IMG/VR virus record: IMGVR_UViG_3300012953_000014
Location: 32,001 to 96,000 of that record
Direction: 5' to 3' (one strand)
Length of the DNA stretch: 64,000 nt
Source: a virus
Shown here piece after piece: positions 8,136 through 54,445 of this stretch. Position numbers and translations under genes: made by a program. The first letter of the stretch is position 1; every line of letters starts with the position of its first letter. The notes beneath the pieces were generated by a model that was not told the DNA's origin, ran no database searches, and saw only the letters and a program-made list of their open reading frames with translations.

Positions 8136-8855
8136 CTACTCTGCTTCTGTCTTCTCGCTTTCATCGCTTATATTTGGTTTGGCACAACTTGGGTGAAAGC
8201 GATAGATTACGTCTTGTTTGCCATATTTTTGAACAAAATCTTTTGGAGCATAATCGGGATTGAAGTCATACCTCAAATACTCCTCAAAACCTAAATCTTC
8301 ATACAATCTTGATAAAAAACCATCAAAGTGATCCAAATAGCACCCTCCGTTGGAAATAGCGGATTTCATAAGCATTTTGCCAATCCCGCCGACTCCGGAC
8401 TCATTATTGTGAACCGCAACTACCTCTGATCTTCCAAATTCTTGATTATCTGTTACTGGATTTGTATATTGCTTTAGGGCGAAGCCAATGTTTTTTCCAG
8501 GGAGCTTAAACAACTCCATCTTGGACAACTCGCCTGTTGAATATTTAGTAAGCATTTCTGGCTTATCAGATCTCGACAGAGAGTCAAGAAACTCCTTCGG
8601 ACCAACTTCCTCATACTCGTTTTTGTTTATTAAATCAATAACTTCTTTTGTCTTCTCAGAATCTACCTCTTTCTCATCCAGTGAGAACATTTCTTTAATG
8701 AGGTATTCATTATACATTCTCTTCTCATAAGACAGATATCCAGAAGGAGACACGTGAGACTCCCACAAGTTTTGATGATATGCTCTTTTAGAATACTTTT
8801 TAATCTGTTCAGAGACTATGTTTTTTAATTCTTTTAACCCTATCTTTTTACTCAT
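8136..8855 (-). CDS. Leader-tagged protein with a GNAT-like C-terminal domain
   Basis: VAVHNN..GVGGIGKMLMKSA..LSRLYEDLGF resembles GNAT motifs A/B; probable start MSKKIG. Confidence 0.5.
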   Translation of the reverse strand: MSKKIGLKELKNIVSEQIKKYSKRAYHQNLWESHVSPSGYLSYEKRMYNEYLIKEMFSLDEKEVDSEKTKEVIDLINKNEYEEVGPKEFLDSLSRSDKPEMLTKYSTGELSKMELFKLPGKNIGFALKQYTNPVTDNQEFGRSEVVAVHNNESGVGGIGKMLMKSAISNGGCYLDHFDGFLSRLYEDLGFEEYLRYDFNPDYAPKDFVQKYGKQDVIYRFHPSCAKPNISDESEKTEAE

Positions 8856-9210
8856 CAATAACCCCAACAACATAGTTCTGATGTACTATATGGTATTGCT
8901 TAGTTTGAATGGTGACTTCTTCAATCATTCTCTTGTCTACTACTAAAGATATATCATCATTATTTTTGGCAGATGTTGTAAACACATCATCCATTGTTCC
9001 GGTTTGCGTTACCCATGTTTGTCGATCCTTGTTTAGGTTAAGTAAAAAAGTTTCACAATCGGACGAGGCACAAATAAATCTAACTTGACCATATCTTTCC
9101 TTATCCACTGTTTCAACCCCTTCAGGAATCAACACACCTGATGTTTGTTTCTCTGGGTGCTTGATCTTTTCTACCAAGATATGTTTGTTAAATGGTTTAA
9201 ACTTGCACAT
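8848..9210 (-). CDS. GroES/gp31-like co-chaperonin
   Basis: FKPFNKHILVE..QTSGVLIP..YHIVHQNYVVGVI. Confidence 0.7.
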   Translation of the reverse strand: MCKFKPFNKHILVEKIKHPEKQTSGVLIPEGVETVDKERYGQVRFICASSDCETFLLNLNKDRQTWVTQTGTMDDVFTTSAKNNDDISLVVDKRMIEEVTIQTKQYHIVHQNYVVGVIDE

Positions 9211-9219
9211 ATTTTCTCC

Positions 9220-11082
9220 TTAAATGTATTTTATCTCACATGCGCCACCGGCACAAGCAATTTCTCCACTTAGATTAGTATTATCATCAACTTCAATAAC
9301 TTTTGTTAAATCAACTTCTTGTAAAGACGACATCATTCTTTCGTATTCTAGTTTGTCGCAGTCTTCAAATGGAGCTTGCTTATATGTGCCGCCATTATAC
9401 GGAAGAACACTTAGACCATTGTAAAACTTGCGGTTTTCCCACATCCATTCACCGACGTTTTCCCATTCACCCTCTTTGATAGAGACTGTCGCAGAAATGT
9501 TGTGCGTATTATTCCCTCTCTTATGTCCGGGTTTGATCCAGTTTTTTGAAAACCACTTAACCCTTTTTAAGAGATCCATGGCCGTTTCATGACGTAAGGT
9601 GGAGCCCTCTGGAGCTTTTTGTGGAATAGAGATAACTGCCGTATCATGTGGTCTGAAGTATTCATCCTCAACTAGTTGTGGGTGATTTATCGATAAATAA
9701 TGATAAATGTCCTCATTCTTTCCAACTCGTATGCGGCGAATGTAATAGTCATTGTGCCAGGCATGAATACCACTAGAACAACCCAACACAAGCGAGGATG
9801 TTCCACTAGGCTTGATTGTGGTCACTCTTGAGGCGGGATTGATACCCAATAGGACGGCGACTCTTTCGTTTTCTTCCTTAGCAAATTTTGATGCCTCTTT
9901 CATGTCCAAGTTTTGCGCTAAGCCTGAACCAATGCCTGTCAAGCCGATGCCCAATAGAGCCTCTCTTTCAGTCGTTCGTTGCCACACAGGACGCAAGTAA
10001 TGAAAATCAGTGTAAGAAGCTTGAAGTGTCCCAACTAGGGCTGCTGCCTGAACTCTACTATTCAAATCTTCTTGAGACTCTACATTGGAAACGTTTACCT
10101 CACACAAGTTACAAAATTGGAAGGGCCTTAAGCCGATCTCACAACAAGGGTTTGTTCCCCAATCCTTATCATTGGTAAAATATATTCCTGGTTCACCAGA
10201 GTTTGAGTGTTCGATTCTCTCCCAAAGCTCCATGAAGAAGTCTTTTTCAACTCGATGACGAACTAAAGTTGCACTATTGTTTGCTCTTGCACGTTGAGGA
10301 TTTTTCTCCCACCAATTACCAGCTTTACAAGCGATCATTTCATCATCATCTGCCGAAAATAACGATATAAGTGCAGCACGCCTAATACCACCAGCGAGAA
10401 CGGCATCAGCAATATGACAAACAACATCATGGACCTCAATGGGTTCAAGTTGTGATCCTTCTTCTTTTTCATTTAAAATAGATTTGATTTGTCGAATACA
10501 AATTTTAAGGGGTTCAGGACCCGGTGCCTTGCCTCCAGAAGTAACTAGTTTTGCACCTTTAGCTCTGATGTCTGAAAAATCAAACTCAATAGTTGATGTT
10601 CCCTCAAAATATGATCGCATCAAAACCTTGACTGCGTCAGCCCAGCCTTCAATGGAGTCGCCAACAAGAAACCGGCGTTTGCGATCCAATCGAGGCTTAC
10701 GAATTTCTGGTAACTTCTCTACATGATGTTTTTGCACGGAAAAACCGATTCCAGTACCACCCAAAAGAAGAAAAAGTATTTCATTAAAAGCTCGGTAATC
10801 ATCAACAGGAATGAAGCCGCAATTGTAAACCCTATTAGGGCTAATTTCGATGGGCTTTCCTCCGAACTGAAGCGAACGCATTGAAGGTAAAATCTTTTTA
10901 TCATAAACATATTTATATGCCTCTTCAATATCCTTTCTCATAAAAGGAAATTTTTTGAGGTGCATTTCTTTGTTTCTGGTTACTAACTCCTCCCATGTTT
11001 CCCTTCTTCCCAAATCATCTCTGTATTTGGCGTATTTCATAAATACTGTAATATCTGATAAGATTTTACTCGACAGTTCCAT
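9220..11082 (-). CDS. nrdJ: Class II (adenosylcobalamin-dependent) ribonucleotide reductase
   Basis: PSMRSLQFGG, YNC, TNPCCEI, TTIKPSGT, C-terminal ACAGGACEI; no beta subunit nearby. Confidence 0.85.
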   Translation of the reverse strand: MELSSKILSDITVFMKYAKYRDDLGRRETWEELVTRNKEMHLKKFPFMRKDIEEAYKYVYDKKILPSMRSLQFGGKPIEISPNRVYNCGFIPVDDYRAFNEILFLLLGGTGIGFSVQKHHVEKLPEIRKPRLDRKRRFLVGDSIEGWADAVKVLMRSYFEGTSTIEFDFSDIRAKGAKLVTSGGKAPGPEPLKICIRQIKSILNEKEEGSQLEPIEVHDVVCHIADAVLAGGIRRAALISLFSADDDEMIACKAGNWWEKNPQRARANNSATLVRHRVEKDFFMELWERIEHSNSGEPGIYFTNDKDWGTNPCCEIGLRPFQFCNLCEVNVSNVESQEDLNSRVQAAALVGTLQASYTDFHYLRPVWQRTTEREALLGIGLTGIGSGLAQNLDMKEASKFAKEENERVAVLLGINPASRVTTIKPSGTSSLVLGCSSGIHAWHNDYYIRRIRVGKNEDIYHYLSINHPQLVEDEYFRPHDTAVISIPQKAPEGSTLRHETAMDLLKRVKWFSKNWIKPGHKRGNNTHNISATVSIKEGEWENVGEWMWENRKFYNGLSVLPYNGGTYKQAPFEDCDKLEYERMMSSLQEVDLTKVIEVDDNTNLSGEIACAGGACEIKYI

Positions 11083-11108
11083 ACATATCTTCTCCTTGGT
11101 TCATTATA

Positions 11109-12491
11109 TTAGGCGTTAGCCCCTTTCATCAATTTTTTATATTTATCCAGCATAAATTTTTGCTGTTCTTCTTGTGACAAAGTTGGTCTCGGGGTTTCAT
11201 CTGGCTCATAACGACTTAGTACCTTGATATCGATATTTGATGTATCCATAAAAATCGAAAATACTAAACCATCTTGCCCATTACGGTTTTTTGCAATATA
11301 CATCCTTCCACCATTTTTCTGTTTGTCTTCAGTTGTTCTGGACACCGAGAAAATAAGATCGGCGACAAAACATTTATTAAACGCTTCAGATATAGATTGC
11401 ATAGTAATGATTTCTGCTTGGAGGCCCGTTCTATTTGTTTGAGAAGCGGTCCAGCCAGCTACCTTATTCTCCATCATTATAGCACGAAGTTCTTCATAAA
11501 TTGATTCTAATTCTTCACGTTTTTCGCGGCGAGTGGACAATGTTCGAAGCAAATCTGCATAATCAACAATGATCATGTCTGGGACGATGCCTTGCTGCTT
11601 TAGTTTTTCCAAGTGAGCCCTGATTGTGTTGGTTGTTGCAGTCTTCGTTGGATACTCTTTAACAATCAATGTACCATCAATATCCTTTAGGAAATCTCGA
11701 ATCTCGTCTTTACGATCCATCAAATCATTCAATGGGATTCCGGTGATGCATGAATCATATCTGTTAGCAATGACAGTATCTTTTAGTTCAAGCGTATAGT
11801 GTACAACTGTCATGCCTGCCTTTAGAGCAGTGGCACCAAGATGTACCAGGACCATAGATTTACCAACACCAGTGGGAGCAATGACAACACCGAGTTCTCC
11901 GCGACCGCAACCGCCACCAGTGATCTCATCCATCTTCTGCCAACCAGTCGTTATTGTATCTCTGCCAGAAAATTCAAATCTTTGCTCAAAATCTTTGATA
12001 TAATCGTAACCAAAGTCTGCGTCTGCACCTGCTTTAAGGGCATCGTTAATCAACACAGAAATCTCGTCAAAAGAGCATTTTTGCAACAGAGTAGACGACT
12101 TCAACATCGCCTCTCTCAACTTTTGTTTTCTGCAAAAATCAAGTGCTGTCTCTTTGATATATTCAGCTGATTCCAGGACATTTATGTTTGATAAAACCCT
12201 AACATAATAATCACGGATCTGTTTTTGCAATGCCTCATTTAAATCTTCAATACCAGATTTGATAATCGTTTTCATAGTCTCATGTGAGGGTTGAGAACCA
12301 TATTTTCTTTTATATTGGAATATCTTTTCTACAAATGATTGCAGATACTTATATTCTAAAAATTCTACATTCAACACCTCAACCATCCTATCTGCAAAGA
12401 CACGATCGTCGAGAATAATGAAAGCTAGTTTTTCCTGGAAGGTTTTTCCATATTTTGAGAAAGATACTTTATCATTACCAGTTTTAGACAT
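11109..12491 (-). CDS. Replicative DnaB/gp41-like helicase
   Basis: Walker A APTGVGKS, YTLEL, IVDYAD, TASQTNR, AKNRNG. Confidence 0.92.
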   Translation of the reverse strand: MSKTGNDKVSFSKYGKTFQEKLAFIILDDRVFADRMVEVLNVEFLEYKYLQSFVEKIFQYKRKYGSQPSHETMKTIIKSGIEDLNEALQKQIRDYYVRVLSNINVLESAEYIKETALDFCRKQKLREAMLKSSTLLQKCSFDEISVLINDALKAGADADFGYDYIKDFEQRFEFSGRDTITTGWQKMDEITGGGCGRGELGVVIAPTGVGKSMVLVHLGATALKAGMTVVHYTLELKDTVIANRYDSCITGIPLNDLMDRKDEIRDFLKDIDGTLIVKEYPTKTATTNTIRAHLEKLKQQGIVPDMIIVDYADLLRTLSTRREKREELESIYEELRAIMMENKVAGWTASQTNRTGLQAEIITMQSISEAFNKCFVADLIFSVSRTTEDKQKNGGRMYIAKNRNGQDGLVFSIFMDTSNIDIKVLSRYEPDETPRPTLSQEEQQKFMLDKYKKLMKGANA

Positions 12492-12519
12492 TATAACCTC
12501 TTAGTTTTGATTTGATTTG

Positions 12520-12548
12520 ATCATATATTAGTTGCGAAAAAAAGTCAA
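12520..12548 (-). promoter_or_regulatory. Sigma70-type promoter upstream of the helicase
   Basis: TTGACT-17 nt-TATGAT. Confidence 0.75.
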
Positions 12549-12572
12549 GACATTTATGGGCGGCTTGAATAA

Positions 12573-13538
12573 CTAGTCCGCGAATGAGTCAATCATCAAT
12601 CTAAATTTTTGAAAAAGTGAGTTCCAATTGTTTTCACTTATTCCATCAACCGTCATCATTTTTAGAACTTCTGTCCTATTAAAAGTTGGTTTAAAATTTT
12701 TAATAGTATCTATAATATGTTGCGAGCTTTTTACAGAAATGTTGGGCGAATAAAGTTGCATCAATTTGTAGTTCAACTCAACTTTGTTTTTTTCAGATAA
12801 AATATTTTTATACAACTTTAACTTAGAATCGGAGGTTCTGCAAAACTTGAATAAATCATCTAACCCATAAGATTTTTCTTCGGCAAGGAAACCAAGGTTT
12901 TTGGATATAGTTTTTAAACCTGCACCCTTGATCCCTTCAAGATTATCTGACTTGTCGCCATCAATAGCTCTAGCGATGGCAAAGTTGTTTGGGTGAATGC
13001 CATATTTGTCAATGATTCTTTTTCTATTCAAAAATTCTTTTTGAACTGGACTGTAGATCATCGTCTCATCATCACACAATTGAATAAAGTCTTTATCCAT
13101 TGAAACAATAATCTTTATATTACCCTTCATAGCTGGCATTCTGCAAATATAAGCAATAACGTCATCTGCCTCGATGTCTTCAATCATGAGTTGGATAACC
13201 GGCATATCATTCAAGTATTCAATCGTCTTTTTCATCTGGTCGTAGCGGTTTTGTGATTCTTCTACGGAAGACATTCCATCATAAGCCCTATTGAGCTTCA
13301 ATGGCTTACGACCATCTTTATATTGTTTTGCAAGTGCTCGACGTTTGGCAGATCCGCCGCCGCCATCCCACACAACAATAACCTTAGTTGGGTTAATCTC
13401 ACGAATAAGCTTTTGAACCGTCATCAAAAAGCCTTTAGTTCCACCAATAGGAGAACCATCAGCGGCGAGGCTCGGGTTCATCACATAATTCCTGATGAAA
13501 GTGTTCATCGCGTCAAATATTAATACTTTTTCAGACAT
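12573..13538 (-). CDS. 5'-3' exonuclease / flap endonuclease (T4 RNase H-like)
   Basis: LIFDAMN, VVWDG, YKDGR, EADDVIA, SMDKDFIQL, GDKSDN. Confidence 0.92.
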   Translation of the reverse strand: MSEKVLIFDAMNTFIRNYVMNPSLAADGSPIGGTKGFLMTVQKLIREINPTKVIVVWDGGGGSAKRRALAKQYKDGRKPLKLNRAYDGMSSVEESQNRYDQMKKTIEYLNDMPVIQLMIEDIEADDVIAYICRMPAMKGNIKIIVSMDKDFIQLCDDETMIYSPVQKEFLNRKRIIDKYGIHPNNFAIARAIDGDKSDNLEGIKGAGLKTISKNLGFLAEEKSYGLDDLFKFCRTSDSKLKLYKNILSEKNKVELNYKLMQLYSPNISVKSSQHIIDTIKNFKPTFNRTEVLKMMTVDGISENNWNSLFQKFRLMIDSFAD

Positions 13539-14345
13539 TTATTCCTCACTGGATAGTTTATCGATGATACTCTCTATGATTTCGATTGTTTCATCAGTTG
13601 TTTTAACTTCAAATGCTCTTTCTGGGTTTGTTTCTTTGATTTTGTCATAAAGTGGTTTATCATTACCATCTTTGGCAGTACACCGATCTCCAATGAACCA
13701 AGGAGTGAGATTCCCACAATGATTTAGGGCGTATGTTTTGTCCCAACCTTTTGGATATATATCAATAGATGTGTTACCACCCATAGAGAAAGATAAAATA
13801 TTCGAAAGGTTGGTTGCTCGAAGAAGTTCTAAATTGTGTTGCCTTATTCCGTGGCGACGATCATATTCTATAAACTTTTTACGATCCTCATCATTTGCCA
13901 ATCGACCAACGGGGCACCAGTTTAATAGCGAACCTCGATAAGATATAAAGTGTCCCGTAGCAGGAAACTTCTTGTACTCTTTCATTAGTGTATAGTAAAG
14001 CCGCTCGGACAACATATACATCAAAAATCGAAATTTGTCTTCTCCAATATGCTCTCTCATATCCAATGAAGACTCTTTTCTCCATTTATCTCTTTCCCAC
14101 TCCGACTTGTCCCAAACATATTTCTGGGTTCCATTGCAGGGCATGATAGTAAAATCTGACAAATCCCTATTTGACTTCAAAAACGCGCCGCATTGCTGCA
14201 TAACATAATCATATCCACTGCCAGTGACAATACCAACTTTGGCAACCTTTGACAGCTCCAATAATGCATCTTGCATTTGTGGCTCCATAGGTTTTCGGGC
14301 TGGTGTTAGAGTTCCATCCATGTCAAATAAGATAATGTTATCCAT
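13539..14345 (-). CDS. HAD-family phosphomannomutase (PMM1/2, Sec53 type)
   Basis: LFDMDGTLTPAR, IVTGS, FISYRGSLLNWCPVGR, GGNTSIDIYPKGWDKTYAL, FIGD..GND. Confidence 0.88.
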   Translation of the reverse strand: MDNIILFDMDGTLTPARKPMEPQMQDALLELSKVAKVGIVTGSGYDYVMQQCGAFLKSNRDLSDFTIMPCNGTQKYVWDKSEWERDKWRKESSLDMREHIGEDKFRFLMYMLSERLYYTLMKEYKKFPATGHFISYRGSLLNWCPVGRLANDEDRKKFIEYDRRHGIRQHNLELLRATNLSNILSFSMGGNTSIDIYPKGWDKTYALNHCGNLTPWFIGDRCTAKDGNDKPLYDKIKETNPERAFEVKTTDETIEIIESIIDKLSSEE

Positions 14346-14348
14346 CGT

Positions 14349-15467
14349 TTACTCCTTTTCGGGAACAGCATCTAAACCATAAAAGTCTTCAGCTTTGCCG
14401 GTTTTATTTTCAAACTTTTGAATCACTTCTTCGTCCATGATATCATAAACGATCTTTGAAAACTTTGGATCACTTTGCATTAACTTAGGAAAAGTTGCTG
14501 CCTGGAACTTCTTTTCATATCCTTCCAAAGTAAACCATGCCCCACTGTTTTTAAGTTTATCAGATGGTTTGATTGCTGTCAAGAGAGATTCATCATTCAT
14601 GATGCCGACTTTCTCTCCACCCCACAAAATTTTAAAGTTACAAATACGACCTTGAGTTCCGAACTTGGATTTTTCGAGCTTGGCCTTGACCTCGCTTCCG
14701 ATTCTGTAGCCGTTATCGTCCTCAATAAACGTTTTCCTACCTTTCAAACCAGTCAACCAAATGCGCAATGAATAAGCATAGATCATGGCTTTGCCGCCTG
14801 GTGTGAACCATGGTTGTGAAAGCATCATCATTGGATTACTAACGTTAATATTTGTCTTTAATTGATTAAGGACAAGAAATGTTGATTGAGTTTTTGACAA
14901 AGAAACCACAAGTTTTTTCATGCCAATCGATAAAACTCGGGGCATTTGGGCCATAGATGACTGTGGGTTGAAGTCTTTCTCAAGATCTGCTCGGCAAGGA
15001 GTCATAGCAAGAGAATCCAGAACAAACAAATAACGATTGTCAGGATCATTTGACATGCACATCTCCATTGTTTCTAAAACTTGCTCAATATCTTCTGGTT
15101 GCAAGATAATGATTTGGTTCTCACCCTCCATGTCACAGCCGAGTTTTTCCAGAAACTCACTTGTCATCGTTGCTTCTGAGTCAAAATATAAAACTTTGAT
15201 TCCCATATCTTGGGCTTCTCTTGCGACTTGGCCAGCCATATAAGATTTACCAGAACTTTCTAAGCCTGCAATCTCCGTAATGCGGCCAACGGGAATACCA
15301 GCCACTTGACCCCTACACGCGATCGAATCAAGCCATCGTGAACCCGTTGGGATCCAGGCTTTGATGTCTGCTGGATTTTCTTGATCTCCTGTGAAAGCAA
15401 TCGTGCGACCTGCTTTTTTGTTGATCATTTTTAATATGTCTTTTGATGATAATTTTCCGTTGGTCAT
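14349..15467 (-). CDS. recA: RecA/UvsX recombinase
   Basis: GRITEIAGLESSGKS, YFDSE, LDSLA, LNQLK, TPGGKA. Confidence 0.9.
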   Translation of the reverse strand: MTNGKLSSKDILKMINKKAGRTIAFTGDQENPADIKAWIPTGSRWLDSIACRGQVAGIPVGRITEIAGLESSGKSYMAGQVAREAQDMGIKVLYFDSEATMTSEFLEKLGCDMEGENQIIILQPEDIEQVLETMEMCMSNDPDNRYLFVLDSLAMTPCRADLEKDFNPQSSMAQMPRVLSIGMKKLVVSLSKTQSTFLVLNQLKTNINVSNPMMMLSQPWFTPGGKAMIYAYSLRIWLTGLKGRKTFIEDDNGYRIGSEVKAKLEKSKFGTQGRICNFKILWGGEKVGIMNDESLLTAIKPSDKLKNSGAWFTLEGYEKKFQAATFPKLMQSDPKFSKIVYDIMDEEVIQKFENKTGKAEDFYGLDAVPEKE

Positions 15468-17175: not shown

Positions 17176-17352
17176 TTATGCCTCTGATATTGCTTCGTAT
17201 GAAACTAGTTCGAACTTGGCACTGTTTCGATATTTACTTACATGAGCAGGGATCTTGTCGTTTAAGATAAGCAGTAAAACTTGTGGATCGTTACTGACTA
17301 CTGTCTTCATCTTGTCATTTTCTTTGTAAACAAGTTTATACTCTGTTTTCAC
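17176..17352 (-). CDS. Small hypothetical protein (58 aa, not in the ORF track)
   Basis: GTG overlapping the upstream TGA; MKTEYKLVYKENDKMKTVVSNDPQVLLLILNDKIPAHVSKYRNSAKFELVSYEAISEA exactly fills the gap. Confidence 0.65.
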   Translation of the reverse strand: MKTEYKLVYKENDKMKTVVSNDPQVLLLILNDKIPAHVSKYRNSAKFELVSYEAISEA

Positions 17353-17660
17353 TCTGAGATCTCCTCTAAAACAATCTTTTTGCTGAAAGAACCTCTGACT
17401 ATTTTTTTATATTTTTTATGGGCTTTGACACCGGTCAAGCTATATTCTTTCCGCAAAGCATCCATGACCTCTTGAATATCAGCAAACTCTTCAACACAAG
17501 GATTTTCAAAAAACTCTTGTGATTCTTCTAAAAGTTTTTCTTTTAGCTTTTGTCGATACTCTTCTGGATCTGCAATTCGATACTTACAAACCTTTCCCTC
17601 TTCTTTAATGATTTTTGGGATTTTGTCTCTTACAAGTTTATTAAACTTTTTAACTGTCAT
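17349..17660 (-). CDS. MazG-superfamily NTP pyrophosphohydrolase (PRA-PH-like)
   Basis: FNKLVRDKIP..KLLEE.QEF..EEFADIQEV. Confidence 0.85.
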   Translation of the reverse strand: MTVKKFNKLVRDKIPKIIKEEGKVCKYRIADPEEYRQKLKEKLLEESQEFFENPCVEEFADIQEVMDALRKEYSLTGVKAHKKYKKIVRGSFSKKIVLEEISE

Positions 17661-42271: not shown

Positions 42272-42314
42272 GTTATTGTTCCTTATAAATAGTTGCGGGC
42301 GCTACCCGCACGAG

Positions 42315-42386
42315 TCAACAGCCTGACTTACATCGTCGAACTGGACGAAGCATTCGCTTTTTAGTTGTCCATACACCTTCAAACAT
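42315..42386 (-). CDS. Putative 23-aa basic peptide MFEGVWTTKKRMLRPVRRCKSGC
   Basis: AGGAG 8 nt upstream of the ATG; overlaps the upstream stop; fills the gap. Confidence 0.45.
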   Translation of the reverse strand: MFEGVWTTKKRMLRPVRRCKSGC

Positions 42387-42699
42387 TGTCATTGCTCCTG
42401 TTAACAAGATTTATTCCTTCATCTCCGAAAATCATACTTAAAATATATGACGTTCCAGATCCAAGGCACCCCAATAAAAATGCACTAGATATGGAATATT
42501 CATAGGTAAATAGTTCTGTAAAGTCGTTTATTGCCCACAAAAAGATTCCAATCCAAAAGCCCATACACATAGGGCAATGAAATAGTTTGCCAAAACCTGA
42601 TAGCCAGTCTTTTGATGGTCGAATGTTATCGAAAATACTTCCGTAAACTAAAATTTGAGTAAGACCATATCCACAGAGGATAAAATAGGTTAGCTCCAT
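42379..42699 (-). CDS. Small membrane protein with CxxC (DUF1360-like)
   Basis: Three hydrophobic segments, LFHCPMCMGFW. Confidence 0.6.
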   Translation of the reverse strand: MELTYFILCGYGLTQILVYGSIFDNIRPSKDWLSGFGKLFHCPMCMGFWIGIFLWAINDFTELFTYEYSISSAFLLGCLGSGTSYILSMIFGDEGINLVNRSNDNV

Positions 42700-43253: not shown

Positions 43254-44070
43254 GATTGTTTATTTCCTGTACTAGTTCTTGTATCTTAATTACTTCCTCA
43301 ACCATCTTTTGGTCCGGTGCTTTGTTTTTATATGACTCTAAAAGACCAATAACATTTTTCGCGTTGTTGTGCATGTCTTCATCATCAACGAACTCTGGGT
43401 TATCTAAAGAGGATTTTATGCTACTTTTAAGTCTACCAACCTCTTCATTTAAGTAAGTCGACAATTCAATTCCGTTATTATAAAAAGAAGTTACGAATTT
43501 GTTCAATAGTGTTTTTTGTTCTGGTAATAACTTACTTCCATATTCGTTATTAAACCTTTGAGCAAACGATTTAAAAACCAGGTTATCCATTGGTACCATT
43601 TCGTTCGTTTGATCTTGTTCTGTCATGTTTTTAATGATTTCGTTCTCCAAAAGAACCTTTGATTTGACTGAAATCCTTTGATTAAAAATCTGGCTAATCG
43701 AGGCAAGATCTTTGTAGTTTGGAACAAAATTTGAAAATGCATCGTCGGTCATCATTTTTTTTATTTTACGAACGAGTTTGTTTTGTTCCGAAACCAATTG
43801 TTTTTTATCAATCTCTTTGTGTCTTGATTTGACCTCATTGATAATTTTTTCTGCGATGTGGACTTTAATACCTTTTGAGCGAGAAATGGCCCTGTAAAGC
43901 TTAAGCTCTCTATACATCATCGACTCTCTTGAGAAAGATTCTTTAATGGCTTTGGTTAGGCTTTCTTTTAGTTTCAAATCTTTATTGATTATTGATTTTG
44001 TTAACTCTTGAACCAACACCTCATAAAGAAACGCACTATTTCGTTTTTTGTTATGTTTAAACTTTATCAT
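43237..44070 (-). CDS. Hypothetical head-module protein following the portal
   Basis: Probable start MIKFKHNKKRN; helical. Confidence 0.65.
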   Translation of the reverse strand: MIKFKHNKKRNSAFLYEVLVQELTKSIINKDLKLKESLTKAIKESFSRESMMYRELKLYRAISRSKGIKVHIAEKIINEVKSRHKEIDKKQLVSEQNKLVRKIKKMMTDDAFSNFVPNYKDLASISQIFNQRISVKSKVLLENEIIKNMTEQDQTNEMVPMDNLVFKSFAQRFNNEYGSKLLPEQKTLLNKFVTSFYNNGIELSTYLNEEVGRLKSSIKSSLDNPEFVDDEDMHNNAKNVIGLLESYKNKAPDQKMVEEVIKIQELVQEINNHVNQD

Positions 44071-46030
44071 TTTTCTTCTCTTTATTTCCCTTTTTTTCAA
44101 GATTTTGAATTATCTTTTGAATTTCAATATCATTTTCCAACACTCTCATCTCTTCTAAGTGAGACTTGTTTTCATAATTAGTTTCTAAATTTTCATAAAT
44201 ACCGTTGGTAAGTCCTTTAAGACCTTCTAACCCAGGATGAATGTTTCTTGTTGTATTTTTTCCCTTTTCTTCGGAATATTTAGACTTATAACTTCTTTTA
44301 CGAGCGCCCATGTTTCTCTTATCAGATTTTACAGGGGTATATTTTTTGCCTTTGGCACCGGGAGTTGTGTATGAATCTTTATCTGGTTTTTTCCAGCTAA
44401 ACTCATTTCTCTTACCCGGAGTTGCCAGTAGAGTTTCTTCTTCGCCCGCAGCAGCAGTGTCTCCTGTATCGGCGTCACCAGCATCATCAGTGTCGCCAGC
44501 GTCGGCTCCAGTGTCACCACCGAACAAGTCATCCCCACCGCCAGTTGCGGTGGTGCCCATGCCGCCCTCATCGGTTGCGGCTGCAATGTCTAACATGCCA
44601 TCAAGCTGCCTATCGTAAAACATTTCTCTTTGATTGCGAACAACTTCTTCATCAGAGAGATCAAAAATGTTTTTAGCAACCCATCTACGACTGAAAAATC
44701 CATCAGTTGCAGAGGAACCGATTTCGAACTTTGTTCTCCAATGTTCAAGCTCTTGAAGTTCCATAATTTTTGAAGGAGAGTTTAAACTGAGGCCGAAAGA
44801 AACCAAGTCTTTTCCAGTATAACCAAGAGTGTATAGATGGATAACTGCCATTTTTTCTAACTCTGAAACCATGCTTCTCTGCAACCTCATAATGGTTCTG
44901 GCGAATCTAATGTCTTTTTGAGCAAGGGTTGTCTTATCTTCTGAACCTTCTTCTCCCTGTGTTAAGTAAGAAGGTGGAACTTTCAAGGCAGAAAACAATT
45001 TATCGCGAAGATATTTTACATCATCAATATCTCCAGTATAAGTTCCACCGGGCAAAGACTCGATTCGTGTTCCCGCTTGCCCTCCACGGACAGGAATAAA
45101 ATAATCTTCATCAACAGACATTGGGTTGTATCTTAAATCAACCCGGCCCGTATCTTGTGAAATAACTTGATTTCTCTTCATTTGGGTGACGATTCTTTGC
45201 ATGTGTTGCTCGACATCGTTTTCGGGGATACCACCAACGTCGATATAAAAGACTCGCCTTTCTGGTGAGCGAACGACACGGTAAGCCATCATAGCATCTT
45301 CAAGTAGAGTAAGTTGTCTCCAAATCCTTCGTGATGACTCTAAGGCAGAACTTCCATACGGGGCATACTTATCGTTTCCTAAAATACGAAAATGAGCAAT
45401 CTGCCAGTTTTCAAATGTTAAGCCACCGCTATTCCACTGAAACTGTACATAACTTGGATTTGTTTTGTCTTCACCTTCAAGGCGTTCTACTTCTGAGGTT
45501 GGCAAACCAATAACGGACTTAAGTCCCAACTTTTCATCAACATCCAAATAAAGAAAATAGTCTCCGTATTTACACAGCGATCGACACCAGCCGAACAGAT
45601 TAAACTCAATGTTTAGTGTGCTATAAAAAAGAGTATTCAAGATTTCTTTGATTTCTTCATTTGGACAGCTTATGTTAAGAAGGCTTTGTAACGGCGAAGA
45701 CACAGTCATTTCGTCAGCATAAATATCTAACGCAGAGGCGATTTCAGGCATATACTCCATTTGATCGAAGTCAACATAACGCTCTGCTCTTGCCATGTTT
45801 GCGCTGGCGTTGCCGAATGCATTATCAAATGCGCCCATTCCATAAGAAGATTTTTTAAAACTAAGGCCACCAGCAGATTGAAATTTGTATTTGTCAAGTT
45901 GCCATCTTTTAAGTTGTCTTGGGTTCTGTCTTTGATGAGTAGTCAGCGGACCAGAAAGCAATCTTGTCAATGCTTTAAACAGAAGTGAGTCTGGGTTTCT
46001 ATTATTATTTTTGTTATTGTTGTTTGCCAT
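44057..46030 (-). CDS. Portal protein (gp20-like)
   Basis: EIASALDIYADE, LLEDAMMAYR..RSPERRVFYIDVG, EDYFIP.RG, IESLPGG, ALKVP. Confidence 0.95.
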   Translation of the reverse strand: MANNNNKNNNRNPDSLLFKALTRLLSGPLTTHQRQNPRQLKRWQLDKYKFQSAGGLSFKKSSYGMGAFDNAFGNASANMARAERYVDFDQMEYMPEIASALDIYADEMTVSSPLQSLLNISCPNEEIKEILNTLFYSTLNIEFNLFGWCRSLCKYGDYFLYLDVDEKLGLKSVIGLPTSEVERLEGEDKTNPSYVQFQWNSGGLTFENWQIAHFRILGNDKYAPYGSSALESSRRIWRQLTLLEDAMMAYRVVRSPERRVFYIDVGGIPENDVEQHMQRIVTQMKRNQVISQDTGRVDLRYNPMSVDEDYFIPVRGGQAGTRIESLPGGTYTGDIDDVKYLRDKLFSALKVPPSYLTQGEEGSEDKTTLAQKDIRFARTIMRLQRSMVSELEKMAVIHLYTLGYTGKDLVSFGLSLNSPSKIMELQELEHWRTKFEIGSSATDGFFSRRWVAKNIFDLSDEEVVRNQREMFYDRQLDGMLDIAAATDEGGMGTTATGGGDDLFGGDTGADAGDTDDAGDADTGDTAAAGEEETLLATPGKRNEFSWKKPDKDSYTTPGAKGKKYTPVKSDKRNMGARKRSYKSKYSEEKGKNTTRNIHPGLEGLKGLTNGIYENLETNYENKSHLEEMRVLENDIEIQKIIQNLEKKGNKEKKNDKV

Positions 46031-46033
46031 TGT

Positions 46034-47623
46034 TTATCCTTTTATCAACCATCCAAAATTTGTATAATCTTCTTTGGCTTTGTCCATTTTATCAAGACTT
46101 TGGTCTTTTTTGTAGCCATGCATACCAGGAATTGTAGTATTAATCTGAGTATTTGTAAAAATCATTGAATTTAGGAATGCTTTTTTGTACTTTAAGTCTC
46201 TTGTATTTTCTTCTAATACGGTATCCCTTACCCAAACAGCGATAGATAGTGACATTACTAAATCATCATTATATCCACGTTGAGCCTCGGGTCTTCCGTT
46301 TTTCCAAACAAAAGTCTTCAATTCCTGATAAGACCTTATAGAATTTATATTAATTAGTTCGTTTCGTATGAACTCTTCCAGTTTTGCAACTATGAGCGGT
46401 CTTGTCTTTTGGGAGGTGGTAAAACCTGGAATAGAGTTTGACATATGTTCTGCTTGGTGTTGTTCGATGTATTCGTGGCTTCCCTTGGTCGAATAATATA
46501 AATTTGGATAGCCTGCATCAATGAGTTTTTCTAATACCGAATAGCCAATATTATTGTTTTCAACCACCAACATTGCATCGCCATATTCTTTTCCCGCGTC
46601 AAATAATATTCTTGAAAACATATCTGTTGTTGGCTTGCCGCGATATTCAGCCACTTGTTCCATTGTTTTTGTATTGAAGATATGAAAAACTGAATAATCA
46701 TTACCGTCACCGCGAGCGACATCGCCAACGAGCAGGTATTTGTTTTCAGGATCATACTCTTCCCAAATCCAAAAGTTTCTGTCAAACCCTGTTTGATGTT
46801 TTGGATCAGAACACAAACTTTCAATTTTGTTTAAATTGTCTGGATGTATTACAGTTTCGCCTGAAGCATTAAAGTTACATTCATACTCTTGTGCCACTCT
46901 TCTTCTTGAAAGATTTTTTGTTGTGTCATCGAACCATTTTTGATCTCTTTCTGGGTGTAACGTCCAATGTAGGCGAGTTGGGTGAAAATCATTTTCTCCG
47001 CTTTCTGCTGATATATATGTTTTATGAAACCAGTTGCCTACACCGTTTGGGGAAGAAAGAGCAATGCATCGACCGCCTGCTGCCATTGTAGGTTGAAGCG
47101 CCGTCCAGAGATCATCAAAGCCTTCAATATGAGCAGCCTCGTCGATTACCAATAATGACAGAGCTTCTGAACGACCGGCATCTGCTGATGTCGAGGATGC
47201 CTTGATTTCCGATCCGTTATTCAAAACAAACGAGGAACGGTTGTCGATTGCGATTTGAGCCAACTGATCAAACCAAGGGGGCAATAACTTAATCATTGCT
47301 TTAACTTTTTTAACTAAGTTGGCGGCGGTGCTGAACTTTGTCGCAATAACTAATATGTTCTTGTCTCTATGGAACAACATCATCCATGAAACGTATGCAG
47401 CTGATATTGTTGAGATTCCCATTTGACGGGATTTCAAAATAACATTATTGCGATAATCGTTAAACTTATGCAACAGATCTTGTTGAAAGTCCCAAGTTTT
47501 AAATGATATTTGTCCGCGAGTAGGGTGAGCTATCTTACAGTAGTTATCAATAAAATATACAGGATCTTTGCCGCATTTGACGATCTCTTTAACGAGATCT
47601 TTTTTTGATAGATATTGCGACAT
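46034..47623 (-). CDS. terL: Terminase large subunit (gp17-like)
   Basis: KSRQMGIST, LLVIDEAA, SSPNG, QEYECNF, DVARGDG.D, NDDLVMS. Confidence 0.95.
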   Translation of the reverse strand: MSQYLSKKDLVKEIVKCGKDPVYFIDNYCKIAHPTRGQISFKTWDFQQDLLHKFNDYRNNVILKSRQMGISTISAAYVSWMMLFHRDKNILVIATKFSTAANLVKKVKAMIKLLPPWFDQLAQIAIDNRSSFVLNNGSEIKASSTSADAGRSEALSLLVIDEAAHIEGFDDLWTALQPTMAAGGRCIALSSPNGVGNWFHKTYISAESGENDFHPTRLHWTLHPERDQKWFDDTTKNLSRRRVAQEYECNFNASGETVIHPDNLNKIESLCSDPKHQTGFDRNFWIWEEYDPENKYLLVGDVARGDGNDYSVFHIFNTKTMEQVAEYRGKPTTDMFSRILFDAGKEYGDAMLVVENNNIGYSVLEKLIDAGYPNLYYSTKGSHEYIEQHQAEHMSNSIPGFTTSQKTRPLIVAKLEEFIRNELININSIRSYQELKTFVWKNGRPEAQRGYNDDLVMSLSIAVWVRDTVLEENTRDLKYKKAFLNSMIFTNTQINTTIPGMHGYKKDQSLDKMDKAKEDYTNFGWLIKG

Positions 47624-49435: not shown

Positions 49436-49737
49436 TTTACAATCCGTATTTTTATCCCGCCCTTTTTAAGACGGGATTTTTCTTTTCTTCCTCGGTTTTT
49501 AGATACAGGTTCACATGCAACTTCGTCATTCTCTATTCCATTGACGTGATGAAGTTCTTGCCCTTCCGGGCATTCCCCATGTTCCTTATCGTGCTTTCTT
49601 TTATCTCTCTTGCGCTTGTTGCGCTCTTCTTGTTCTTTGGAGCCTGGCTCGTTATATTCTTTCGAATAATCGCGGGGCGTATCAGATTCTTTATTCCACT
49701 TTTGTTCGCTAAGAGTCTTTTTTATTTTTATCTTCAT
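49432..49737 (-). CDS. Small HNH-like protein
   Basis: RDYSKEY..ELHHVNG..SKNRGR; probable start MKIKIKK. Confidence 0.5.
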   Translation of the reverse strand: MKIKIKKTLSEQKWNKESDTPRDYSKEYNEPGSKEQEERNKRKRDKRKHDKEHGECPEGQELHHVNGIENDEVACEPVSKNRGRKEKSRLKKGGIKIRIVK

Positions 49738-50014
49738 CTTTGTCTCCCTCTTTCTCATCTTCAGGTCGTTCTAAAGTTGCTCCCTTAATTTTGGCAGTAT
49801 CTACGCATATTCTTGCGGCGGCTTGAACTAGTGTAGTCCCAGGTTCTGGGTCGACTTTTTTATCCTTTACGATATCGGCAATACATTGATTGCGAGTATC
49901 AGTTGCCTTTTCTTTAGATTGAGATTGACTAAAGTGTAGTTCACTCTTTTCGCGTAACAAGACCTCAAGCTCTTCTTGAATAAACTTTTCGAGTTGTGAT
50001 CTTGTCAGCTTCAT
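49709..50014 (-). CDS. Leader-tagged hypothetical protein
   Basis: MKLTRSQLEKFIQEELE. Confidence 0.65.
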   Translation of the reverse strand: MKLTRSQLEKFIQEELEVLLREKSELHFSQSQSKEKATDTRNQCIADIVKDKKVDPEPGTTLVQAAARICVDTAKIKGATLERPEDEKEGDKDEDKNKKDS

Positions 50015-50840: not shown

Positions 50841-50875
50841 AATATATCACCTCCTTATAAATAGTTTCTTTTTTA

Positions 50876-53800
50876 TTAACAGTTCACATTTGCATAACCA
50901 TTTTTCTTTTCTATATTAATAACAGAATCAGCAGAGTCTTTTAGGCTATCTAAATGCGAAATAAGCATAACTGTTTTGAAAACTGATTTTACAATATCAA
51001 GAATTCTAGTAAAACCTTCCATCCTCTCTTCGTCTAAAGCAGTACCAGGTTCATCAAGAATGAATACTTGACTCCTGGGGATAGTAGAGACCGCTATGAA
51101 TGCTAATCGGATTGCCATTGCGGACACTGTCTTTTCAGCACCGCTGGCCATTTCCAATGGACTCGGATCCCTATTTGGGTGTTTTATATATATGTCCAAG
51201 CGATTATCCTCAGTTTCAAAAAACACTTCAAAGTCTACCACATTAGCAAGGACTTTTGAAATTTCAGAGTTGATTACTGGTAGGCTCTTTTTGATAATGT
51301 CATATGCGATTCCGTTTGGATGCATCGCCCTCATATAAAGATCGTAAGCCTCATATTCATTTTGAGCCTGTTCTTTATTTTCTTTTTGCTCTTTCAGGTT
51401 TTCAATCTTTTGCTCATAATATCCATGACTTTTATAAAGATCCAATAATATATCTTCACACTGTTCTAGATCTTTATTATTTTCTTCAAGTTCTTTTTGC
51501 TTGTCGTTTGTCTGTAAGATGATCTCATTAATGTTTTCGATCACCTCTTTGTTTTCTTCGTAAAGTTTTTCTTTTGCGACCAAATCTTTCAATTCAAGTT
51601 CTGCAATGGACTTTTTTGATTGAAGGTTTTCCAATATTAAGAAAGAGCCTTTAGAATCTAACTCTAACTGGTTTTTGATGCTCAAGAACTTTTCAAACTT
51701 ACTTAAGTTTTCTACCACACCTTCGATGCCTAGCTGGTCTGCTGAGCGTTGTAAGGCTGCTTTTGTATTCCCATCCTTAACTGTTGATAGCTGGACAAGG
51801 CTTACTTTGTCTTTTGCTTCATATGCCCCCTTGATAAACTTACAATGAGAATATTCCTGTCCACATGGCACTTCATCCAACAAACCAATCTGCTTATTTA
51901 AGCGATCGATTTGACTTTTATCATTTTTAATTTGCCTTGTTATTTCATCAATCTGTTCAGAGATATCAGAATGCTTTTGTTTTTTAGAAGTTAAAAGTTC
52001 AACATCAAAACTTTTCACAAATTTATTTGCTTTTTTTATTTTATCTGTGGTTTTTACGGTGTTTTCTTTCTCATTTGAGATTTCCTTTCCTAAAGTTGCA
52101 ATCTTGTTCTTGTGTTTTTCAATACCAAGCTTTACTTCAGATATGTTTATAATCTCTGTTGGGGCTGATTTTACTTTATCTTCAAGAGAAGCGATTGTAT
52201 CTTTTGTAGTTTCAATGTTCCCTTTTAATCTTTTGCATTGAGATTTTCTAGCTTCGGTGATGGCCTCGTTATTTAGTAGTTCTTTTTTAAGTTTTTTAAT
52301 CTCAACATCATGATCTACGTTGTCTAAATTTTTTATTGAAGCTTTCAGCTCGGCAGCATCATCTTTGGCGGTTTTGAACTTTTTATCAAGCAAGTCAAGA
52401 TCTAGGAACTTAGCTAGGATTTCTTTTCTCTTTGTTGAACCTTCGTTGATAAAAACTAAAGACCCTAGCTGAGATGACATTGAGGTTAAGAGGAAATCTT
52501 CAATGGTTCCAAAGTACTTAATAATATTTTTATCAGTATCTGATCTTGTCAGGCCATTTAGTGATTTAGATTCTTCAGTCACAACATCATAACAGGAAAA
52601 ATCTAAAAATGTTTTTGCCTCGACTGTCTCGTTTCCTTTTAGCTTCTTAAGGTATTTTTCTACCTTGCGATATATTGTGTATACTTTGTTGCCTCGGCGA
52701 ATCTTGACTCTTCCAGAACCAGCCTCTTTGTCATTGTTAACTATGTTCAAGTTCTTGCGAGAATTTTTTGAAATTGAGTTATAGATCGTAAACAAAAGTG
52801 AGTCGACAATGCTCGACTTACCGGAGAAGTTTTTGCCAAAAATACCAGTGATTCCAACATATTTTGTAAAATCCAAACGATTACTTTCACCATAATTAAA
52901 AAGGTTATCCCACTCAAGTTCAAGAATCTCATAGTTTGTGTTCCTGTAAGTCTCGTCATTTTGTTCAGCTATTTGGTTGTATTTTTTATTGAGATCTAAA
53001 ACTCGCTTATCAAGCTCATTTGATATCTTATAATCTTCCAAATACTCTCTAATGAGTTTTTCTTGAACTGCAATATCTCTTAAATCGTCTCTCCTAAAAT
53101 CATCTGATACTTCAACACCATCTGTGGAGATTGCGCGATTGATAACCGAAACTGACTCTGGCTTGAATCTTTTCTTAGCTACATCAACGGCTTTTTTTAG
53201 GGCAGTTGATGAAATACTATTCTCAACAACCAATCTAACACGGGCACCTTCAGGTACAGCTTTTGTGGGTAGCTTCCCACCCTTTGTCAAGTGAATTGAA
53301 ATAAATGGTTTGGAGCTTGTATATAAAAATGGTTCGCAAGTAAAGTCTTTTTTATTCTTTATATCCCAAAGCAAAAAACCTTTGTGTTCTGATTCACCAA
53401 AGTTCTGTTGAACCGTTGAGCCCGCATATCTAATGCGTCCGGCTTTATCGAGCTTTTGATTCTCTAAGTGAATGTCACCAAGCATTGCATAATCAAAATC
53501 TTTAAAGATTGACATGTCATTTTCGCCGTGTTCCATTTTCCAACCAATGTCTGTTGTACATCCTGTAATAGAACCATGATAGAGTGCAATATTTGTTCTC
53601 GATTTGCTCGCGGGTTTGGCCCAGTTATCAACGTCGAACACTGAAAGTACATTCAGGGCGAAATCCTTGTGGATGATTGTTTCCCCAGAATTTTTTAGAA
53701 GGTGTAGATTTTTGTGATCCAACGCATCAGCGATTGGAGTAATAGAATCTTGTCTGTTTCCATTTCTTAAGTTACCGTCATGATTTCCTAATATAACATA

Positions 53801-54019
53801 TGTCGGTGCAATATCCGCCAGGCTTGAAAGAAAGTTTGATGCCATTTCCACATACTCTGGTGAGATTTGTGTCTTTGTGTGGCATATATCTCCGCAATGA
53901 ATAATAAAATCTACCTTCTCTTTTTTAAGATCCGAATAGATTTTATTAAATATTTCTTTGTATTCTTTATGATATTTTAAGTTGCGGATATGGGTATCCG
54001 CAATGTGAGCAAACTTCAT
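50876..54019 (-). CDS. Fused Mre11/SbcD nuclease - Rad50/SbcC ATPase (gp47-gp46)
   Basis: ADTH, GD, GNHD, LGDIH phosphoesterase motifs; GKNFSGKS Walker A, coiled coil, SGAE signature, LDEP Walker B, ISH. Confidence 0.92.
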   Translation of the reverse strand: MKFAHIADTHIRNLKYHKEYKEIFNKIYSDLKKEKVDFIIHCGDICHTKTQISPEYVEMASNFLSSLADIAPTYVILGNHDGNLRNGNRQDSITPIADALDHKNLHLLKNSGETIIHKDFALNVLSVFDVDNWAKPASKSRTNIALYHGSITGCTTDIGWKMEHGENDMSIFKDFDYAMLGDIHLENQKLDKAGRIRYAGSTVQQNFGESEHKGFLLWDIKNKKDFTCEPFLYTSSKPFISIHLTKGGKLPTKAVPEGARVRLVVENSISSTALKKAVDVAKKRFKPESVSVINRAISTDGVEVSDDFRRDDLRDIAVQEKLIREYLEDYKISNELDKRVLDLNKKYNQIAEQNDETYRNTNYEILELEWDNLFNYGESNRLDFTKYVGITGIFGKNFSGKSSIVDSLLFTIYNSISKNSRKNLNIVNNDKEAGSGRVKIRRGNKVYTIYRKVEKYLKKLKGNETVEAKTFLDFSCYDVVTEESKSLNGLTRSDTDKNIIKYFGTIEDFLLTSMSSQLGSLVFINEGSTKRKEILAKFLDLDLLDKKFKTAKDDAAELKASIKNLDNVDHDVEIKKLKKELLNNEAITEARKSQCKRLKGNIETTKDTIASLEDKVKSAPTEIINISEVKLGIEKHKNKIATLGKEISNEKENTVKTTDKIKKANKFVKSFDVELLTSKKQKHSDISEQIDEITRQIKNDKSQIDRLNKQIGLLDEVPCGQEYSHCKFIKGAYEAKDKVSLVQLSTVKDGNTKAALQRSADQLGIEGVVENLSKFEKFLSIKNQLELDSKGSFLILENLQSKKSIAELELKDLVAKEKLYEENKEVIENINEIILQTNDKQKELEENNKDLEQCEDILLDLYKSHGYYEQKIENLKEQKENKEQAQNEYEAYDLYMRAMHPNGIAYDIIKKSLPVINSEISKVLANVVDFEVFFETEDNRLDIYIKHPNRDPSPLEMASGAEKTVSAMAIRLAFIAVSTIPRSQVFILDEPGTALDEERMEGFTRILDIVKSVFKTVMLISHLDSLKDSADSVINIEKKNGYANVNC

Positions 54020-54027
54020 ATAATATG

Positions 54028-54056
54028 ATTATATTATATTATTGAACTAATGTCAA
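54028..54056 (-). promoter_or_regulatory. Perfect sigma70 consensus promoter
   Basis: TTGACA-17 nt-TATAAT ending 8 nt before the ATG at 54019. Confidence 0.85.
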
Positions 54057-54064
54057 GGAGAAAA

Positions 54065-54445
54065 TTAAGTTCCGCGAGTGAATCTTTTTGGGTCTCTTTC
54101 TCGGGCTTTAGCCATAGATTTTAGAGAATCTTCATCGGAGACAGCGGGCTTGGGATCTTTGCGAGGATAAAGTTCCATCATCGCTTCGTTTTCAAGTCGC
54201 ATTACATCATCTCTGCTCAGGGGTGGAATCATGCCTTCATCGTCTTTTGCGCCGCCATCTGCAAGGATTCCACGCAAGCGGTCACGCATCTCCATAGGCA
54301 CAATTCTACCTTTTTCTTTCATCATGCTATGAACGCCCTTAAGCCACTCTTTAGCGCGATCATAATCTGGTGAAGCTTGTTCATTGACATGATTTTCTAG
54401 TTCTTCTTTAATAATTTGTTGTAGCTTATCTTTTGTTAGTTTCAT
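54065..54445 (-). CDS. Leader-tagged hypothetical protein
   Basis: MKLTKDKLQQIIKEELE. Confidence 0.65.
   Translation of the reverse strand: MKLTKDKLQQIIKEELENHVNEQASPDYDRAKEWLKGVHSMMKEKGRIVPMEMRDRLRGILADGGAKDDEGMIPPLSRDDVMRLENEAMMELYPRKDPKPAVSDEDSLKSMAKARERDPKRFTRGT

Follow-up and report, generated by a model that had tools for sequence, protein, structure and literature searches.

A leader peptide shared by genes for unrelated proteins

We analyzed a 64,000-nucleotide stretch (the window) of IMG/VR record IMGVR_UViG_3300012953_000014, which covers bases 32001 to 96000 of a linear, 156,635-bp viral contig with an estimated completeness of 71%. The source is an uncultured marine T4-like phage, and nearly all genes in the window lie on the minus strand. 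Five of these genes open with the same short peptide, here called the type-A leader, which follows the pattern MK[LF][ST][KR]xx[LI]xx[LIF]IxEE. They are listed with the score of each N-terminus in a position matrix made from independent environmental leaders.

39897 to 40952, minus strand: leader gene, 351 amino acids, MKLSKQNLESLIQEE..., 15.8 bits; in the slot between the prohead protease gene and a conserved 140-amino-acid gene
41555 to 42271, minus strand: leader gene, 238 amino acids, MKFSKSNIVKIIREE..., 21.4 bits; in the slot directly upstream of the prohead protease gene
49709 to 50014, minus strand: leader gene, 101 amino acids, MKLTRSQLEKFIQEE..., 26.4 bits
50029 to 50385, minus strand: leader gene, 118 amino acids, MKLTKAQLKQLIKEE..., 39.9 bits
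54065 to 54445, minus strand: leader gene, 126 amino acids, MKLTKDKLQQIIKEE..., 38.6 bits; directly upstream of a gp47/46 fusion gene

These five N-termini had been quoted in a first-pass annotation of the window, and all are real, with minus-strand starts at 40952, 42271, 50014, 50385, and 54445. A regular-expression scan of 5,117 candidate starts over the whole contig recovered only these copies and one more at genome positions 7476 to 7769. With the position matrix, the six copies scored 15.8 to 42 bits, and the best of 4,404 other genome starts reached 3.8. When 48,692 sequence windows in 169 predicted proteins were scored, five of the top six were leader N-termini and the sixth copy ranked seventh, below a near-N-terminal stretch of a protein encoded outside the 64-kb window.

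Past residue 22, the bodies showed no significant similarity to one another (best BLASTP E value, 0.07 over 18 residues). Together with the 21 body families found beside the protease (see below), this bears out the annotation's description of a portable leader in front of unrelated bodies. The same codon was used at 74 of 132 pairwise identical leader residues, with Leu and Ile codons varying freely, and the DNA upstream of the leader genes differed between copies. Constraint therefore acts on the peptide rather than on the DNA.

A degenerate DNA pattern search of IMG/VR returned at least 120 loci and at least 172 open reading frames (ORFs), and 163 distinct leaders among the matches listed were used for a conservation profile. 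Positions left free by the pattern favored Q/R/K at residue 7, K/R at 9, Q/E/R/K at 10, K/R at 13, and L/I/V at 16, with 1.5 to 2.1 bits each; information then dropped to ~0.5 bit at positions 17 to 22 and to background from position 23 on. L8 was found in 95% of these leaders, I11 in 82%, and I12 in 100%, where the search pattern itself fixes position 12 and, in codons 8 and 11, the middle T; it also imposes the invariance of E15. All six leaders of the contig carry [LI]-x-E ending at residue 14. The similarity could in principle reflect a nucleic-acid signal, such as a translation enhancer or a recombination site, or the recent duplication of one family. The 5' coding region is A rich, tandem arrays of leader genes are present in relatives, and conserved leader DNA could help cassette exchange. 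However, the varied codons, the unrelated upstream DNA, the lack of mutual similarity among the bodies, and the ~2 bits retained at each pattern-free position make this explanation very improbable.

The leader bodies in the window are acidic (isoelectric points of 4.1 to 6.2), and Pfam and PHROG searches placed none of them, the 238- and 351-amino-acid proteins included, in a known family; a protein-atlas look-up of the 118-amino-acid protein returned unnamed viral clusters only. Several internal [LI]-x-E sites occur in each of the 351- and 238-amino-acid proteins, and none past residue 14 in the 126-amino-acid protein. The 351-amino-acid protein is predicted to be all helical, and its AlphaFold2 (AF2) model is of low confidence (predicted local distance difference test [pLDDT] score of 46) and unfit for a fold search. 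In its family, an acidic middle region that varies separates a conserved N-terminal part from a basic C-terminal helix that hardly changes, and its orthologues retain the leader plus L/M-x-E at residue 21. A core or scaffold-like protein might be built in this way. Short contig pieces with 0 to 1 differences within the 351- and 238-amino-acid genes were present in one metatranscriptome and were not counted as expression, given possible DNA carry-over.

Leader genes in slots around the prohead protease

As the annotation had observed, the 238- and 351-amino-acid genes flank the prohead protease gene, a Peptidase_S77 member. They do so within a head module whose layout is T4-like according to Pfam and PHROG matches of the window proteins.

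46034 to 47623, minus strand: large terminase
44057 to 46030, minus strand: T4-type portal gp20 (Pfam Portal_T4, E value of 2.9e-79)
42379 to 42699, minus strand: conserved 106-amino-acid protein with a predicted hydrophobic N-terminus and a weak DUF1360 match
40957 to 41562, minus strand: prohead protease of the T4 gp21 type (Peptidase_S77, PF03420, E value of 7.8e-30; phrog_207, E value of 2e-57)
39472 to 39894, minus strand: conserved 140-amino-acid core-module protein, N-terminus MKKTELKKLLKPLIKECIKE, 5.3 bits in the position matrix
36696 to 37880, minus strand: gp22-like acidic scaffold, 394 amino acids, with 16 [LI]-x-E sites, immediately ahead of the capsid gene
34852 to 36672, minus strand: major capsid protein of the gp23 family (Pfam Gp23, E value of 2.5e-68)

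The tail sheath and tail tube genes lie beyond the capsid gene. The protease contains GELDHP and SSRG motifs and is 52% identical to that of the closest cultured phage, Flavobacterium phage immuto, and ~40% identical to those of marine cyanophages. The leader presumably docks on the scaffold, which resembles in its N-terminus the product of the immuto gene at the equivalent position. In the capsid protein, L57-R-E59 followed by A60 aligns with the T4 gp23 maturation cut between L-T-E65 and A66. Retention of this site suggests that the cleavage specificity of the S77 protease is conserved relative to T4.

We scanned 6 kb around each of 80 related protease loci, which were selected on the protease, irrespective of the leader. 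Leader genes were present in 46 of them, directly upstream of the protease and ending at its start in 21 and directly downstream of its stop in 16. All 61 leader ORFs ran in the coding direction; the opposite strand had none. The loci share a conserved frame, in which a DUF1360-like gene of ~100 amino acids is followed by the protease gene and then by the 140-amino-acid gene, and either junction can be empty or filled. In the window both are occupied, and the 106-amino-acid gene, which abuts the protease directly in many relatives, marks the upstream edge. The 38 protease-flanking leader genes, the window's two included, fall into 21 body families (BLASTP E value of ≤1e-4). Bodies thus turn over like cassettes behind a constant leader in fixed slots.

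Among the matches listed, an S77 protease was encoded by 29 of the 49 leader-bearing contigs of at least 30 kb and by 13 of the 15 with a completeness of at least 57%. The two exceptions were 62% and 68% complete, and the other listed contigs without S77 were fragments, estimated at 11 to 49% of large genomes. The annotation's link to a gp21-type protease accordingly stands, and the leader ends in the I-x-E motif of that protease.

A second leader type and the skeleton of T4 targeting sequences

In T4, the prohead protease gp21 cleaves after L/I-X-E, and internal proteins carry a 10- to 19-residue N-terminal capsid-targeting sequence (CTS) that gives affinity for the core and is then removed (PMC9026906). 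Experiments on the IPIII CTS, MKTYQEFIAE, mapped targeting to residues 4 and 7 and processing to residues 8 and 10 (PMC9026906). The type-A leader has a skeleton of hydrophobic-x-x-hydrophobic-hydrophobic-x-Glu (h-x-x-h-h-x-E) at L8, I11, I12, and E14, with the same spacing relative to Glu as IPIII residues 4, 7, 8, and 10. This design is the one mapped in IPIII (PMC9026906), and the annotation's proposal that the leader is distinct from the T4 CTS is not upheld. Across the genome, the skeleton was found within the first 20 residues of 17 N-termini, compared with 5.7 expected from its internal rate, and the Glu was residue 14 in 11 of them.

A second leader family, type B, repeats this skeleton with the same spacing at W8, F11, L12, and E14, and among the matches listed its conservation ends exactly at E14.

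56813 to 57160, minus strand: type-B leader gene, 115 amino acids, MKNEFNKWRKFVNESE...

The type-B consensus is MKLLLENWRKFLNE, and the corresponding genome pattern, MKLL[LM]ExW[RK][RK][FY][LV][NK]E, is strictly matched by four proteins, the one above and three outside the window at genome positions 6161 to 6706, 11503 to 11964, and 14342 to 15310. Three further N-termini at 8 to 14 kb of the genome resemble type B by eye, and the core W-x-x-[FY]-[LV]-x-E has no internal occurrence in the proteins of this genome. Type B is widespread, with at least 120 loci in IMG/VR, and shares contigs with type A. Two unrelated leaders that share only the positions mapped in T4 provide the strongest internal argument for a CTS-like role.

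The type-B bodies are larger (median, 200 amino acids) and often enzyme-like. In relatives they include AAA_33 and Zeta-toxin-type kinases, HAD RNA-repair, NUDIX, and tRNA-ligase CPD domains, as well as protein kinase, 5'-nucleotidase, DNA methylase, and HNH domains. Among longer type-A bodies elsewhere, 43 of 45 had no Pfam match, the exceptions being a TseH-like body and a GNAT body, the latter behind a strict leader. Outside the window, an island of about eight consecutive or nearly consecutive minus-strand genes at genome positions 6161 to 15310 has type-A or type-B-like N-termini. It includes one P-loop kinase-like body, and the strict copy at 7476 to 7769 is immediately followed by a loose type-A one, MKLNEQNLLEIIEEVLEE. 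A 328-amino-acid protein at genome positions 155342 to 156328 (minus strand) has an HExxH metallopeptidase-like motif and, after it, an internal leader-like stretch, ITESRLREIIKGVIQE (13.3 bits), and a long tail of acidic repeats.

The likeness to the T4 CTS extends to the position as an N-terminal propeptide, the unrelated bodies, the gp21-family protease, the I-x-E end, and the location of cargo genes at variable loci (PMC9026906, PMC3012670). T-even internal proteins are likewise diverse outside the CTS (PMC9026906; PMC3012670). Between MKTYQEFIAE and the leader, only MK and the skeleton are common, and ten residues are too short for statistics. The leader differs in having its Glu at residue 14 instead of 10, in its much stronger conservation across a large clade of uncultured phages, in its much wider use, in occurring also on protease-flanking genes, and in coexisting with a second type. 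A further difference is that the leader bodies are acidic, whereas T4 internal proteins are basic.

Acidity is also a property of the T4 core proteins. The proteins gp67, gp68, and gp22, like the two leader proteins at the protease, are acidic, contain several L/I-x-E sites, and are encoded directly around the protease gene (gene 21 in T4), and gp22 starts with MLKEQLIAE, itself CTS-like. The leader might therefore direct its proteins into the assembling prohead as auxiliary scaffold or core components only, which would be expelled after cleavage and before DNA packaging, with nothing delivered to the host. This would follow the T4 precedent, in which core proteins are cut into fragments that exit the head (PMC9026906). 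Several features weigh against this alternative, and we judge it unlikely. Genomes carry 0 to 17 copies, with families swapping in fixed slots, which fits a structural role poorly; tagged bodies in relatives have enzyme and toxin-like domains; and the 126-amino-acid protein lacks [LI]-x-E past residue 14. Unlike the T4 core proteins, the 238- and 351-amino-acid proteins match no Pfam or PHROG family and coexist with a separate scaffold (36696 to 37880), and the flanking slots vary among relatives instead of being fixed. The phiKZ-like giant phages phiKZ, 201phi2-1, and SPN3US offer another parallel, in that many of their head proteins are cut after Glu by a diverged gp21 homologue and part of the cargo is ejected into the host (PMC9026906). 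Their motif is S/A-x-E, however, they are not known to share one conserved leader at the N-terminus, and they differ in capsid lineage and size class.

The gp47/46 locus and promoter-like motifs

The 126-, 118-, and 101-amino-acid leader genes of the window surround a gene related to T4 genes 47 and 46.

50876 to 54019, minus strand: gp47/gp46-like (Mre11/Rad50-type) fusion, 1,047 amino acids (Pfam Metallophos, AAA_23, and SMC_N)

An Mre11-like phosphoesterase is joined here to a Rad50/SMC-like ATPase, a fusion that is kept in at least 376 IMG/VR contigs. The 45-nucleotide (nt) gap upstream of the gene contains a sigma-70-like, near-consensus TTGACA-17-TATAAT. At 80 related gp47/46 loci, leader genes were found upstream in 33 and downstream in 25, with 0 to 6 per side, and the 92 leader ORFs around the gene had no counterpart on the opposite strand. 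The window's 126-amino-acid gene upstream and its 118- and 101-amino-acid genes downstream occupy these same slots.

The motif ACTATTTA occurred 18 times, compared with 3.06 expected, and 15 of the occurrences were on the coding strand. Eleven copies lie 9 to 48 nt before gene starts, including those of the tail tube, the sheath, the scaffold (30 nt), and the 238-amino-acid leader gene (15 nt). Copies at 50858 and 50612 precede two small genes that head the operon with the 118- and 101-amino-acid leader genes.

28916 to 28923, 32002 to 32009, 37910 to 37917, 39247 to 39254, 42286 to 42293, 50858 to 50865, 58412 to 58419, and 60523 to 60530, minus strand: examples of ACTATTTA sites

The T4 late-promoter consensus, TATAAATA, was not enriched on the coding strand, and ACTATTTA is a candidate late promoter element unlike that of T4. 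Two members of a set of three ~140-amino-acid paralogues with the N-terminal motif G(N/D)VGSYQ(V/A)SG (4444 to 4872, 37975 to 38385, and 38813 to 39229, minus strand) also have ACTATTTA upstream, and two are located between the scaffold gene and the 140-amino-acid core gene; family matching returned no match for these paralogues.

Looser copies

Two looser copies listed by the annotation, starting at 39894 and 8855, do not stand out by score alone. The former is the N-terminus of the 140-amino-acid protein, and the family consensus, MKKSELKKxLKPxxKECxxE, fits h-x-x-h-h-x-E with the Glu at residue 16. The gene, however, belongs to the conserved core: it is found downstream of the protease in no fewer than 60 of the 80 related loci and forms the downstream edge of the slot, and its product is probably a core protein rather than swapped cargo.

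8136 to 8855, minus strand: GNAT-like protein, 239 amino acids from MSKKIGLKELKNIVSEQ, leader score of 1.1 bits

For the copy at 8855, the predicted structure points to a GNAT-like fold, as in the annotation, but the N-terminus is only weakly leader-like. With an AF2 model of pLDDT 85, the top Foldseek hits were all GNAT acetyltransferases (best E value, 5e-4; template modeling score, ~0.45 to 0.5). The Pfam match to Acetyltransf_7 was weak and under the family cutoff (E value of 0.006), and a profile search of the PDB gave no match. Homologues in other phages start with varied short h-x-E N-termini, type B among them. The protein may bear a degenerate leader and is a plausible cargo candidate. 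The gene is located among putative nucleotide-metabolism genes; judging by their N-termini, its neighbors may encode a GroES-type co-chaperonin, thymidylate synthase, and ribonucleotide reductase.

Two other matches were set aside. The helix inside the scaffold that the annotation considered leader-like, LDEETLKAAIEE, is present but out of register and outside the 30 best-scoring windows, and, not being above chance, it was taken as such. A MazG-like protein at 17349 to 17660 scored 10.5 bits at an offset of 6 and was dismissed as coincidence because its N-terminus, KLVRDKIP..., is a typical MazG-family start.

Distribution beyond this genome

The annotation had suggested scanning the genome and its relatives with a leader profile. 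Besides the six copies that stand out in this contig, a 32-position profile matched 15,945 clusters (50% identity) among 1.84 billion representatives at an E value of ≤0.001. Five long related genomes (84 to 100% complete) carry 3 to 17 leader copies each, all on one strand in four of the five, and a reversed control pattern gave 0. In cellular genome collections, leaders of the true type were found solely on contigs of metagenome-assembled genomes (MAGs), and an S77 gene was also present in two of the three MAGs searched. Scores at the pattern-free positions served to tell true leaders from the many chance matches in cellular genomes, such as MKMWQCLVCGFIYEEE, which resembles the start of a rubredoxin; isolate genomes gave chance matches only. 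A contig labelled as a giant-virus MAG (IMGVR_UViG_GVMAG-S-1030632-100_000001) has three tandem leader genes starting with MKISKRQL[KR]RIIKEEK... and is probably a mis-binned T4-like phage fragment.

Among cultured phages, the strict pattern with up to two mismatches was absent from S-PM2, Melnitz, and Flavobacterium phage immuto, and immuto has looser forms only (MKKSQLRQIIKEALD and MKKSQIVKAVQEVLEE). A tblastn search of 50,697 cultured-phage records with the 126- and 140-amino-acid proteins gave nothing usable. In immuto, two adjacent genes (5937 to 6236 and 4936 to 5937), one of them annotated as a cob(I)alamin adenosyltransferase, both open with M(A/E)(D)NF(N/D)L(R/K)(S/K)FL(T/V)ENKLT, which may be another shared N-terminal peptide. 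The leader was not described in the literature covered by a full-text search. Its form, scale, and clade are new relative to that literature, and the principle is already known from T-even phages.

The strongest profile matches were single frames made up of two to four leader-body units (public proteins P0083 to P0232). Some of these are true multi-unit proteins, and they look like protease-cut cargo polyproteins, with E-N-K or E-S-K often just before the internal leaders. Internal copies would also be compatible with a general interaction helix that recruits proteins to some other hub, a host or phage complex, and is neither cut nor packaged. The charged amphipathic character of the peptide, its conservation past the predicted cut to residue 16, and the copies outside the head module point in the same direction. 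Against such a helix, the leader ends in a protease motif with the spacing of the mapped T4 CTS, type B shares the skeleton alone with conservation ending exactly at Glu, and leader genes are strongly concentrated beside the protease gene and co-occur with the S77 protease. We therefore give this alternative little credence.

A proposed capsid-targeting role for the leader

We favor, with moderate confidence, the interpretation that the 15- to 16-residue leader (MKITKxQLKQIIKEEL) acts as an enlarged capsid-targeting propeptide, of the kind represented by the T4 CTS. The leader would fold as a short amphipathic helix, and L8 and I11 would dock the protein on the scaffolding core during prohead assembly. 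The S77 protease would then cut after E14 of I12-x-E14, or at a weaker second h-x-E at residues 19 to 22, releasing the body within the head. The leader would serve two medium-sized helical proteins at the protease, probably accessory core proteins, together with four or more small acidic proteins encoded at variable loci, and type B would tag larger proteins, whose bodies in relatives are often enzyme-like. We infer docking, cutting, and encapsidation from the sequence comparisons above.

Several observations weigh against this interpretation. Of the five leader genes in the window, three are not in the head module but next to a recombination gene with an early-type promoter; the 126-amino-acid gene has its nearest ACTATTTA 152 nt upstream, which leaves its timing less clear, and the late-promoter role of ACTATTTA is itself one that we infer. 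Residue 16, past the predicted cut, is enriched for L/I/V (~80%) in the 163 leaders, and, given the conservation of residues 15 and 16, the model may be wrong about the recognized element or about where the cut falls. Internal leaders without an initial Met were found in 65 cases, and thus the leader need not be N-terminal. The S77 rates (29/49 and 13/15) are raw proportions and not enrichments over a background rate. A tblastn search with a 22-residue leader gave nothing usable in the 50,697 cultured-phage records. Finally, the acidic bodies, in contrast to the basic T4 internal proteins, make retention with the DNA uncertain.

Delivery of the cargo into the host is a possibility to which we assign somewhat less than even chances. 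Slightly more tentative still is a broader proposal, in which a 14-residue zip code in two dialects (MKITKxQLKQIIKE/E and MKLLLENWRKFLNE/, with the slash at the predicted cut), common to an entire uncultured clade of marine T4-like phages, would send more than 15,000 unrelated families into the capsid for co-injection with the DNA. Each of these proteins could then be recognized by its sequence. Under this proposal, and with the same reservation, the cargo would comprise kinases, GNAT, NUDIX, RNA-repair, and toxin-like enzymes, sometimes as protease-cut polyproteins.

T-even phages have already established the concept, and the gain here would lie in scale, breadth, and predictive use. If the capsid-targeting interpretation is correct, a 15-residue string flags capsid-loaded proteins of abundant ocean phages from sequence alone. 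It would also offer a natural, conserved tag for loading foreign proteins into non-coli T4-like capsids, and two dialects with one skeleton would form a data set on what the scaffold core and a gp21-type protease recognize. The tagged proteins, most of them without a known family, could be among the earliest phage proteins that the host encounters, for instance anti-defense or take-over factors, and, should the zip-code proposal also hold, they would constitute by far the largest catalogue of phage-delivered effectors.

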